Origin: Acidobacteriota bacterium
GTDB lineage: Bacteria > Acidobacteriota > Vicinamibacteria > Fen-336
Assembly: GCA_022340585.1 (NCBI GenBank)
Contig: JAJDNS010000132.1
Location: 7,967-71,966, forward strand
Length of the DNA stretch: 64,000 nt
Reading direction: 5' to 3'
This document shows, one piece after another, positions 22,399-25,623 of the stretch; within the stretch, counting starts at the first letter, position 1; each line of letters begins with the position of its first letter. Position numbers and translations under genes: made by a program. Under the pieces are notes generated by a model. The model had not been told where the DNA came from. It worked only from the letters and a program-made list of their open reading frames with translations, and did no database searches.

Positions 22399-25300
22399 GT
22401 GGACCTCGAGTCCCTGAAGACGGACACCGACCTGGAAGAGACGAAGACGACGGCCGACGACGTGGTCGAGATCGAGACGCGGGTGCAGAAGCGGGCTCTC
22501 GTCATCGGTGGGGGGATCGCCGGGATCCAGGCGGCCCTCGACCTCGCCAACGCAAGGGTGCCGGTGACCCTGGTGGAGAAGTCGCCCTCGCTGGGCGGAC
22601 GCATGGCCCAGCTGGACAAGACCTTCCCCACCATGGACTGCTCGATCTGAATCCTGGGCCCCAAGGCCCTGGATGCCGGTCGGCATCCGCTCATCGACGT
22701 CGTCACGAACGCCGAGGTCACCGGTTGCGAGGGCGAGCCCGGTGACTTCCGGATCTCCGTGCGCAAGCACCCCCGCTTCGTCCGCGAGGACCTGTGCGTG
22801 GCCTGCGGGCTCTGCGTGGACGCCTGCCCCCAGGTGGGGGGCAACGAGTTCGACGTGGGCCTCAAGGCCCGCAAGGCGATCTACCGCCCCTTCCCGCAGT
22901 CGGTCCCTGCGACCTACGTCGTCGACCGGGAGTCCTGCCTCAACTTCATGCCGCACCTGACGCCGAAGCAGCGAACGAGGCTCAAGAAGGTCGAGCGTCT
23001 GAAGCACAACAAGCGTCCCGACTACCCGCCGAACATCCTCGTCTGCGGCCACTGCGAGGCGGCCTGCGACGTGAACGCCATCGACTTCGACATGCTGCCC
23101 GAGGACCTGGAGCTGCGAGTGGGCTCGGTCGTGGTGGCCGTGGGCTTCCAGGAGTTCGACGCCCGCAAGCTCGGCAACTACGGCTACGGGCGCTTTCCCA
23201 ACGTCGTCACCAGCCTCGAGCTCGAGAGGATGCTCAACGCGTCGGGAGTCACCCGGGGCCACGTGGTCCGCCCCTCCGACGGAAAGACCCCGCGGCGCAT
23301 CGTCTTCGTCCAGTGCGTGGGGGCTCGGGGTGAAGGGGGACGCCCCTACTGCAGCCGCTTCTGCTGCATGAACGCGGTCAAGGACTCGATGCTCCTGCGC
23401 CAGCACGATCCCGAGGTCGAGGACGTCACCGTCCTCTACACAGACATGAGGGCCTTCGGAAAGGGCTTCGACGACTTCGTGAAGCGCTCCCTCGAGGAGC
23501 AGAGCGCCCGCTACCTCCGCGGCCGTCCGGCCAAGATCGAGCGGGTCGGGGAAGACGACACGCTGGAAGTCTTCGTCGAGGACACCCTCCGCCACGAGCA
23601 GCGCCGCATCCCCGCCGACCTCGTGGTCCTGTCGGTGGCGGCGGCCCCGAACGACGGCGCGCGGAAGCTGGCCGAGGCCCTCGGCATCGAGACCGACCCC
23701 TACGGCTTCATCGCCCGGGAGGACCCCGCCATCTCGGCGGTGGAGACCCGCCGGGAGGGCGTCTACGTCTGCGGCAGCGCCGTGGGGCCCCAGGTCATCC
23801 CGGACTGCGTGGCCCAGGCCTCGGCGGCGGCAGCCCGGGCCCAGCTCTACCTCAGCGGCGAGCGCGTCGACCGCACCGAGGCCCCGGTTGAGCCCATGGA
23901 CCTCTCGGGGCCCCCCCGGGTGGGCGTCCTCGTCTGCCACTGCGGCGTCAACATCGGCGGGGTTCTCGACGTCGAGGCGCTGGCGCACGAAGCGGGGCGC
24001 CTGCCCGGAGTGGTGGCCGCGAAGGCGCACCTGTTTGCCTGCTCCACCGCCGGGCAGGAGGAGATGCTCGAGCTGATCCGCGAGCACGGGCTCAACCGCG
24101 TGGTGGTGGCGGCCTGCACCCCGCGCACCCACGAGCCGGTCTTCCGCGAGGGCCTGGCCCAGATCGGCTTCAACCCGTACCTGCTGGAGATGGTGAACAT
24201 CCGGGACCAGGTCTCCTGGGTCCACGCCCGGGAGCCCGACGCGGCCCAGGAGAAGGCGCGCGCCCTCATCCGGATGGGCGTGGCCCGCGCCCGCCATCTG
24301 GAGCCGCTCCAGGAGTCGAAGGCCCCCATGACCCGGGCCGCCCTCGTGGTGGGAGGAGGCATCGCCGGCATCCAGGCCGCCACGGACTTGGCGGTGCAGG
24401 GCTTCCCGGTCACGCTGGTCGAGAAGCAGGGCCGCCTCGGGGGACGCCTGGCCGCTCCGCACCTGAAGTTCCTGTACCCGAACATGCGGCCGGCGGCGGA
24501 GGTCCTCGAGCAGAAGCTCGACCGCCTGCGCAGGAGCGGCGCCCGAGTCCTACTCAACACCGAGGTCGCCGCCGTCCGCGGCTTCGTGGGCAGCTTCGAG
24601 GTGGACCTCGAGGGGCCCGCCCCGGAGACGCTGCCGGTGGGCGCCCTCGTCCTGGCCATCGGGGCCGACCTCCACGACCCCCGGGGCGAGTTCGGGTACG
24701 GCGAGCTGCCCAACGTCATCACCAGCGACGAGCTGGAGCGGGTGTTCTGCGAGACCCCGGTCGACGGGCCCGTCGGGGACGGGCGGCCCTCCTCGGCGTC
24801 GTTCATCCTGTGCGTGGGCTCCCGTGAAAAGGAGGGCAGCTGCACCGGCTGCTCGCGGTACTGCTGTCCCACCGCGGTCAAGCAGGCGATGATGCTCGCC
24901 GAGCGGGGCATCGACACCACCGTCTTCTACCGGGACATCCGGACGGTTTCCAGCGGGGCCGAGGAGATGTACCGCGCGGCTCGGGGCATGGGCGTCCTCT
25001 TCGTGCGTGTTCCCCCCGACCAGAAGCCCGAGGTGGTGGGCGAGGGACGGGCCGAGGTGGTGCGCTGCCACGACGACCTGCTGAACCGCACCGTCGAGGT
25101 CTCCACCGACCTGGTGGTCCTCAGCGTGGGCATGCGGCCGCGCCAGCCCGACACGAAGCGCCTGCACGAGATGCTCAAGGCCAGCGTGGGTCTCGACGGC
25201 TTCTTCCTCGAGCGCCACCCCGAACTCGCCCCGGTGGAGACCGCGGTCGAAGGGGTGCTCCTGGCGGGAACGGCCCAGGGCCCGAAGGACATCGTCGACA

Positions 25301-25623
25301 GCGTGGCCCAGGCCTCGGCCGCGGCCGCGAAGGCCTCGGTCTTCCTCGCTCACGACGAGGTGACCCTCGACCCGGCGGTGGCCGAGGTCGACGAGGAGCG
25401 CTGCCGCGCCTGTGGCGACTGCGTGGAGATCTGCCAGTTCCATGCCCCCGAGCTCGTGGCCACCGCCGACGGGGGACACGTGGCCCGCATCAACGCATCT
25501 CTGTGCAAGGGCTGCGGCACCTGCGCCAGCTGGTGCCCGTCGGGGGCCATCACCTGCCACCACTTCACCGACCGTCAGATCACCGCCCAGATCGACGCCT
25601 TCTTCGCGGAGGCCGCACCATGA
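22399..25623 (+). CDS. hdrA: HdrA-like flavoprotein 1 with two tandem FAD modules; selenoprotein (in-frame TGA 22648-22650)
   Basis: GTG with [15 protein letters not shown]...[20 protein letters not shown] continues in frame into ORF 22759-25623; ferredoxin motifs, YCSRFCC, second GGGIAG core. Confidence 0.88.
22671..22688 (+). promoter_or_regulatory. Bacterial SECIS-like hairpin of hdrA-1
   Basis: GGATGCC-GGTC-GGCATCC, 20 nt after the TGA. Confidence 0.8.

Follow-up and report, generated by a model that had tools for sequence, protein, structure and literature searches.

The gene hdrA-1 raises the question of whether a TGA codon close to its 5' end stops translation or specifies selenocysteine (Sec). 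The gene encodes a protein of the HdrA family and lies at positions 22399-25623 on the plus strand of a 64,000-nucleotide (nt) stretch of DNA from an Acidobacteriota bacterium, which we refer to as the window. Table-11 calling of open reading frames (ORFs) splits hdrA-1 into two pieces, 22267-22650 and 22759-25623. The preliminary description of this DNA had pointed out that the first ORF ends at a TGA and that the same frame runs on into the second, and we found both features in place. When TGA was translated as Sec (U), we obtained a single frame of 1074 codons plus a terminal TGA, in which the sole internal break is the TGA at 22648-22650 (codon 84; U84). This frame would begin at GTG 22399, with GGAGGA 7 nt to its 5' side. 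On the evidence set out below, hdrA-1 is very probably translated as one 1074-residue selenoprotein, and the earlier proposal of a single selenoprotein of ~1074 amino acids is thus supported.

We examined what the sequence on either side of the TGA encodes. Pfam assigned to hdrA-1 two Rossmann units binding flavin adenine dinucleotide (FAD) or nicotinamide adenine dinucleotide (Pyr_redox_2), along with several 4Fe-4S domains (Fer4 and related families). The top matches among solved structures were HdrA subunits (5odc_A, E = 2e-205; also 8rvu, 9sfi and 7bkb), and the match to 5odc_A comes in four stretches, in which residues 26-181 of hdrA-1 correspond to residues 139-294 of the structure, 215-434 to 295-514, 505-676 to 3-174, and 887-1072 to 470-653. 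The order of these stretches identifies hdrA-1 as a fused, domain-permuted double HdrA. The chain opens with a thioredoxin reductase (TrxR)-like FAD unit into which a ferredoxin domain is inserted; after this come the HdrA N-terminal Fe-S domain, another TrxR-like unit and, at the C-terminus, a 2x[4Fe-4S] ferredoxin domain. HdrA-type models also headed the NCBIfam matches. The best of them, NF040770 for HdrA2 of Methanosarcina, scored 1049.5 bits over three separate stretches, under its cut-off of 1100 bits, and NCBIfam did not find an MvhD domain in hdrA-1.

The TGA falls inside the first of the two TrxR-like units. The FAD-binding GxGxxG motif (residues 36-41) is encoded 5' of the codon and the remainder of the FAD domain 3' of it, and the 36 codons that separate the TGA from the next possible start (GTG 22759) hold conserved HdrA sequence. 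Across residues 26-181, the alignment to 5odc_A is gapless over the TGA. U84 stands opposite Cys197 of 5odc_A (DCSIC) and, again gaplessly, opposite the non-standard residue X197 of 9sfi_A (DCAMX), so that the TGA takes the place of the second Cys of the HdrA DCxxC motif, as had been recognized from the sequence at the outset. The codons at 22639-22650 on the plus strand, with TGC at 22639-22641, would therefore encode a CxxU redox motif (Cys81-Ser-Ile-Sec84). This motif is confined to unit 1; unit 2 has different residues at the equivalent place.

Relatives of hdrA-1 were collected by tblastn from species-representative genomes (591 among 599 candidate stretches), and the best 80 loci were kept for all locus counts. 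In all 80, the match begins at query residue 34 or earlier, that is, upstream of the TGA. A strict motif search scored 74 of the 80 loci and a relaxed pattern scored all of them; on inspection, the six loci missed by the strict motif also carry TGA, within variant motifs or next to contig-end cuts. The aligned codon was TGA at 73 sites in 46 loci and TGT or TGC at 43 sites in 35 loci, with one locus (L073) carrying both kinds of site. No codon other than these three was found at the aligned position among the 116 sites of the 80 loci, which is the outcome that the preliminary description had expected from an alignment of homologues. When the loci were sorted by hand into bacterial and archaeal according to record title, TGA was present in 46 of 47 bacterial loci, the exception being L083 (Caldatribacteriota). 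Every one of the 33 archaeal loci had Cys and none had TGA (Bathyarchaeia, Promethearchaeota and other Asgard groups, Methanosarcinales and Methanobacteriota). This distribution is the classical signature of a putative Sec/Cys position. The relatives are mostly bins of Planctomycetota, Acidobacteriota and Gemmatimonadota, and many of the loci resemble the window in having a second TGA site ~5.2 kb downstream. Within the whole genome of our organism, the motif matched only at the two sites of the window. Two of the loci (L018:3235 and L051:3190) carry the variant motif AKTFPSMYCS(T/A)-TGA-IFGPK, in which Tyr replaces the Asp before Cys; there the stem described below is kept, and the loops read GGGC and GGUA.

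Bacterial Sec insertion sequence (SECIS) elements follow a spacing rule of 16-37 nt after the UGA. In hdrA-1, a SECIS-type hairpin at 22671-22688 on the plus strand begins exactly 20 nt past the TGA, where it had first been reported. It consists of a 5' stem GGAUGCC (22671-22677), a loop GGUC (22678-22681) that begins 27 nt past the UGA, and a 3' stem GGCAUCC (22682-22688). The stem is a perfect helix of 7 base pairs (bp), and an extra U22670-G22689 pair is possible at its base. We scored this helix in a fixed register, with the stem at +23 to +29 and +34 to +40 counted from the T of TGA, at 75 TGA sites (73 in the loci and 2 in the window) and at the 43 Cys sites. All seven pairs could form at 50 of the 75 TGA sites and at none of the Cys sites, and six of the seven at 24 TGA sites and one Cys site; at least six pairs were thus available at 74/75 TGA sites, compared with 1/43 Cys sites. 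The loop letters GGTC showed a similar division (68/75 TGA sites versus 5/43 Cys sites).

Covariation was measured in an ungapped alignment of 45 of the 75 TGA sites, namely those known at that point. In this alignment 98.1% of helix cells were paired, two pairs were invariant, and three of the seven pairs had changed on both sides. The compensatory changes were from C-G to U-A in six sequences, from U-A to G-C in two, and from G-C to C-G in one. The covariation score, for which two helices were tested jointly, was matched by none of 500 shuffles and lay above those of all slid registers. An Ala to Val replacement (GCC to GUC) was accompanied by a synonymous CGG to CGA change, synonymous third positions within the hairpin were nearly fixed, and the hairpin uses codons that are rare in hdrA-1, which has 70% G+C (GAT for 2 of 66 Asp, GGT for 6 of 92 Gly, and CAT for 3 of 25 His). 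Together, these three features indicate that selection acts on the RNA as well. The hairpin is accordingly conserved, covarying and tied to the TGA, a favourable outcome for the check on a bacterial SECIS that had been suggested at the outset. We also considered a mini-hairpin upstream (GGGCC-CCAA-GGCCC, 22656-22669), which dominates the minimum free energy (MFE) structure of an 81-nt stretch; it was paired in only 56.4% of cells, and we rejected it as a conserved element.

The apical region of the hairpin had also been said to closely resemble that of the Escherichia coli fdhF SECIS, and this likeness is confined to the apical GGUC loop. TGCAGGTCTGCA is present downstream of the TGA of K-12 fdhF, and both genes have a hairpin within the coding sequence, 3' of the UGA, with GGUC as the apical loop (UGCAGGUCUGCA in fdhF and UGCCGGUCGGCA in hdrA-1). 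However, the distance from the UGA to the loop is 18 nt in fdhF as against 27 nt in hdrA-1, and the hdrA-1 stem has no bulged U, a feature of the fdhF helix that is needed for SelB binding. By these features the hdrA-1 element falls outside the fdhF type; the putative SECIS resembles that of fdhF and is not a copy of it.

A further expectation was that the genome would contain the machinery for Sec insertion, and all of its parts were found in the assembly (6.26 Mb, 231 contigs, 70.2% G+C). We detected SelA (428 bits; contig C221), the SelB-specific wing-3 domain in a frame of 683 amino acids (70 bits; C73), two SelD proteins (400 and 345 bits; C200 and C141), and a 99-nt tRNA-Sec(TCA) whose acceptor stem has 8 bp and whose extra arm is long (C152). 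The G+C content of the sel-gene contigs is 69.7-70.9%, compared with 70.2% for the genome. The second selD (345 bits; C141, ~30623-31543 on the minus strand; locus L005) itself has one in-frame TGA, at ...SSSG-U-ASKL..., and we take this G-U-A-S-K position to be the usual Sec/Cys site of SelD. A possible hairpin, CAGGUCCUG (CGCUCAG-GUC-CUGAGCG), follows ~32 nt downstream and again contains GGUC. This selD is thus a predicted selenoprotein gene in its own right. A Molybdop_Fe4S4 search for a formate dehydrogenase selenoprotein gave three matches without a stop in the short domain covered, and was uninformative.

The reliability of the codon was assessed by comparing contigs of four public runs over 22300-23400. 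No letter other than that of the window was found at 22648-22650 in the contigs of these four runs, although variation occurs at the nearby synonymous sites 22647 and 22656. The contig of run X1 (22617-22721) spans the TGA codon with no other letters and that of X2 (22617-23091) with one, and the listed pieces of X4 that cover the TGA derive from more diverged relatives (4-6 other letters) with the codon unchanged. An RNA run (X15) yielded one 151-nt contig (22647-22797) with no other letters, the first letter of which lies a single base upstream of the codon; this contig gives a weak indication of transcription, DNA carry-over being possible. In runs X1, X2 and X4, the summed contig depth over 22596-22669 was ~320-2900, compared with ~4-30 in the bins upstream. 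This depth peak is a short conserved stretch common to many related organisms in the rhizosphere and marsh samples. A loose end at 22643 resembles a Cys-type relative.

Several observations weigh against reading hdrA-1 as a selenoprotein gene. The hairpin encodes the conserved residues D-A/V-G-R-H-P, hence its conservation lies partly at the protein level. Its fold as a single sequence is marginal, the 81-nt stretch giving z = -1.91 and being matched by 6 of 200 shuffles; the MFE structure of these 81 nt adopts another pairing, and the 66 nt from the TGA onward fold into the hairpin. We judge the hairpin to be non-random because of the comparative counts at TGA and Cys sites, not because of this fold. 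A SECIS family was not found by Rfam, either at the gathering score over the whole window or at E ≤ 10 over 22560-22800, where the only hits were three chance-level minus-strand matches to small RNAs or microRNAs. We take the missing SECIS match to reflect a limit of the library rather than counter-evidence. The contamination of the bin is estimated at 5.16%, and one of the sel genes might in principle stem from a different organism. Lastly, we infer both the GTG 22399 start and the outcome at the UGA, which might be Sec, another residue or termination.

Three other explanations were weighed against these data. Were the TGA a real stop, hdrA-1 would be a split or decaying gene with two products, a peptide of 83 residues and, starting at GTG 22759, a protein of 954 residues. 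These are exactly the two ORFs that Table-11 calling returns, and the databases present the family in the same form. All 120 relatives listed from the protein collection lack the N-terminus, covering at most 82% of residues 1-500, and five of five non-window records that we fetched (P0010, P0064, P0074, P0054 and P0065) begin MDAGRHP, at an ATG seven codons past the TGA and within the SECIS flank. The window's own database record begins at GTG 22759. Such truncated records are the output of gene callers, not observations of proteins, and they bear out the suspicion that standard callers would break this gene; three of the five are named as HdrA-family by NCBI, and all five are without the FAD and CxxU motifs. 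A downstream protein starting at GTG 22759 would likewise have neither GxGxxG nor CxxC/U, and the 36 conserved codons at 22651-22758 would belong to no gene. Decay is also difficult to reconcile with a codon that is kept in 46 loci from many phyla, always opposite Cys and with both flanks conserved as protein. We regard a real stop as very unlikely.

Alternatively, the UGA could be read through without Sec, for example by a near-cognate Cys-tRNA or by Trp-tRNA. The result would be a complete protein carrying Cys or Trp, at least under selenium limitation. Cys is evidently tolerated at this position, given the 43 Cys sites in relatives, and the inserted residue is here a prediction from sequence. 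Low-efficiency reading of this kind would leave the selection on RNA structure unexplained, as 68 of the 75 TGA sites have a SelB-type hairpin with a GGUC loop that is absent from the Cys-type genes. The complete set of sel genes, with a UGA in selD itself, also argues for Sec, and we regard readthrough by other tRNAs as very unlikely. An error of sequencing or assembly in place of TGC or TGT appears extremely improbable. The genome is a bin of 231 contigs, and we found no positive support for an error: the X1 and X2 contigs are unchanged across the codon, no run has a variant at 22648-22650, and the same TGA recurs in 46 independent assemblies and in the second hdrA of the window. A check of the contigs of public runs, which might have exposed such an error, thus left the codon intact. 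Translation of hdrA-1 as a single selenoprotein is the explanation that we retain.

In the proposed mechanism, as a ribosome neared the UGA at 22648-22650, SelB in its guanosine triphosphate form, loaded with Sec-tRNA(Sec), would bind the apical GGUC hairpin, with its loop 27 nt downstream in the mRNA, and would deliver Sec instead of termination. Sec84, as part of the motif Cys81-x-x-Sec84, would then sit in the first TrxR-like unit, where the helix after the FAD-binding Rossmann motif begins; in the HdrA of methanogens, this position is occupied by Cys197 or Sec197. For methanogen HdrA, it has been proposed that a selenenylsulfide (Cys-Sec) pair near the flavin relays electrons between the MvhD adaptor or Fe-S clusters and the electron-bifurcating FAD. 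An excerpt of the 2026 Nature report on the Hdr super-assembly describes Sec197 of M. maripaludis HdrA as forming a bond with a Cys, in a position between cluster A3 and the FAD, and proposes it as a thiol/selenol electron shuttle, the authors leaving its exact role unresolved (PMC13518236). The most likely partners of the hdrA-1 product would be the MvhD of the overlapping gene that follows, a Sec-type HdrA2 and an HdrBC-like protein, with which it may form a flavin-based electron-bifurcating module.

The genes for these candidate partners all lie on the plus strand downstream of hdrA-1. The first, mvhD (25620-26099), encodes a FlpD/VhuD-like [2Fe-2S] adaptor (Pfam FlpD, 8e-51; NCBIfam VhuD, 1.2e-34, below cut-off). 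No in-frame TGA was found in mvhD (25620-26099), which is of the all-Cys form. Its ATG overlaps the hdrA-1 stop (ATGA, 25620-25623) and GGAGG lies 9 nt upstream; the overlap suggests translational coupling of the two genes. The second, hdrA-2 (27276-29732), encodes an HdrA of the HdrA2 type fused to MvhD and is a full-length match to NF040770 (1138.4 bits, above the cut-off of 1100). It would also be of the Sec type, carrying the same Sec motif as hdrA-1 around its TGA at 27882-27884. The hdrA-2 hairpin at 27905-27922 (CGAUGCC-GGUC-GGCAUCG) differs from that of hdrA-1 by a closing pair changed on both sides, C-G for G-C. The third is an hdrC/hdrB-like fusion at 29510-31390, with a 4Fe-4S dicluster and two CCG domains (Pfam CCG, 2.7e-28; NCBIfam HdrB and HdrC below cut-offs). 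As listed, this ORF overlaps hdrA-2, and its true start probably lies after 29732. The 3' end of the cluster is adjoined by a plus-strand gene at 31568-35644 for a probably unrelated protein of 1358 amino acids with InlB B-repeat-like, CE2_N and GDSL lipase domains.

Upstream, Pfam identified two plus-strand genes for a 2-oxoacid:ferredoxin oxidoreductase (OFOR), one for a protein of 665 amino acids with the thiamine pyrophosphate/beta domain (19765-21762) and one for the gamma component of 199 amino acids (21755-22354), the latter directly upstream of hdrA-1. The NCBIfam matches of these genes (19765-22354) were all under curated cut-offs. A MarR regulator is also encoded upstream of hdrA-1. 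Among the relatives, the larger oxidoreductase gene lies upstream of hdrA at 36 of the 80 loci, each of which is bacterial and of the TGA type, and mvhD lies 3' of hdrA in 71 of 80; the archaeal Cys-type loci often have hdrBC upstream instead of the oxidoreductase. The order oxidoreductase, fused Sec-hdrA, mvhD, Sec-hdrA2 and hdrBC-like gene is conserved in loci L009-L047, L051, L060 and L086. One of the fetched database records of relatives, P0054 (1160 amino acids), has MvhD fused to its C-terminus.

Among the flanking genes scanned we saw no methanogenesis context, and the eight flanking ORFs scanned included no AOR-type BamB/C or HydABC-type genes; what we found there was OFOR, MvhD, HdrA2, HdrBC and MarR. 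On a more novel reading, which we consider less likely than not, the cluster may encode an undescribed selenium-dependent electron-bifurcating complex, which could link 2-oxoacid oxidation, through reduced ferredoxin, to the reduction of some disulfide or other acceptor. On the same reading, the complex would occur in Planctomycetota, Acidobacteriota, Gemmatimonadota, Zixibacteria and others from soils, marshes and sediments, and would have escaped notice owing to the truncated form in which databases hold its key subunit. In the literature searched, supplements excluded, we found nothing specific on an OFOR-hdrA-mvhD cluster or on Sec-HdrA in Planctomycetes, and we make no claim that either is unpublished.

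HdrA itself has figured among the selenoprotein families of bacteria and archaea since 2006 or earlier. The excerpted text of the 2006 survey counts 16 bacterial Sec-HdrA genes, with a maximum of 7, in Syntrophobacter fumaroxidans, and reports fused hdrA-hdrA selenoprotein genes in Deltaproteobacteria (Zhang et al., 2006; PMC1794560), and passages of a 2026 review repeat the listing (PMC13188914). We set hdrA-1 beside the 2006 set by description only, and in those terms they share the in-frame UGA, a coding-region SECIS, multiple copies, hdrA-hdrA fusions and clustering with FrhD/MvhD-type genes. The operons described in the excerpt run glpC-hdrA-frhD-frhG-frhA with hydrogenase subunits (PMC1794560), whereas hdrA-1 is flanked by the oxidoreductase on its 5' side and by mvhD, hdrA2 and hdrBC on its 3' side. 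We conclude that hdrA-1 adds one more gene, with a SECIS of the usual bacterial kind, to a selenoprotein family already known, and that it does not represent a new kind of system.

Two other groups of HdrA proteins offer structural parallels. The Methanococcales HdrA, in its Sec form (M. maripaludis Sec197, 9sfi_A) and its Cys form (5odc_A, M. thermolithotrophicus), has the same fold, the same residue at this position and the same motif, DKTFPTxDCxxC/U-ILxPK, by the FAD motif; a further likeness is the MvhD/VhuD-type adaptor encoded near hdrA-1. The archaeal proteins, however, are single units of ~655 amino acids that dimerise, whereas hdrA-1 is a fused, permuted double unit of 1074 amino acids with the Sec motif in the first unit only. 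Archaeal Sec insertion uses a SECIS in the 3' untranslated region, whereas the hairpin of hdrA-1 lies inside the coding sequence and its organism is bacterial. The overall plan of hdrA-1 is also that of BamE from the class II benzoyl-CoA reductase of Geobacter metallireducens, described in an excerpted 2026 preprint as a fused, permuted HdrA dimer, with the MvhD-like adaptor BamF encoded beside it (bioRxiv 10.64898/2026.04.10.717634). According to the same excerpt, it is the N-terminal TrxR unit of BamE, and not the second one, that holds the bifurcating FAD together with the pair Cys59-Cys62, and Sec occurs in BamF. The likeness, drawn by description only, extends to two TrxR-like units, their permuted order and the N-terminal redox pair; it differs in that the pair is Cys-Cys in BamE and would be Cys-Sec in hdrA-1, and in that Sec is found in BamF whereas the mvhD of the window has no TGA.

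What is known of Sec decoding and of HdrA is unchanged by this finding. Its value lies in annotation, and perhaps also in the surrounding gene cluster, which is conserved and uncharacterised. Read correctly, hdrA-1 would encode a full-length flavoprotein with a FAD-binding motif and a Cys-Sec redox pair, rather than a fragment and a headless enzyme, and the same correction would extend to many database entries of its relatives. It would also mark this organism and its relatives as selenium-dependent for an HdrA-type, presumably electron-bifurcating, module, which is relevant when the metabolism of uncultured bacteria from soil and sediment is reconstructed.

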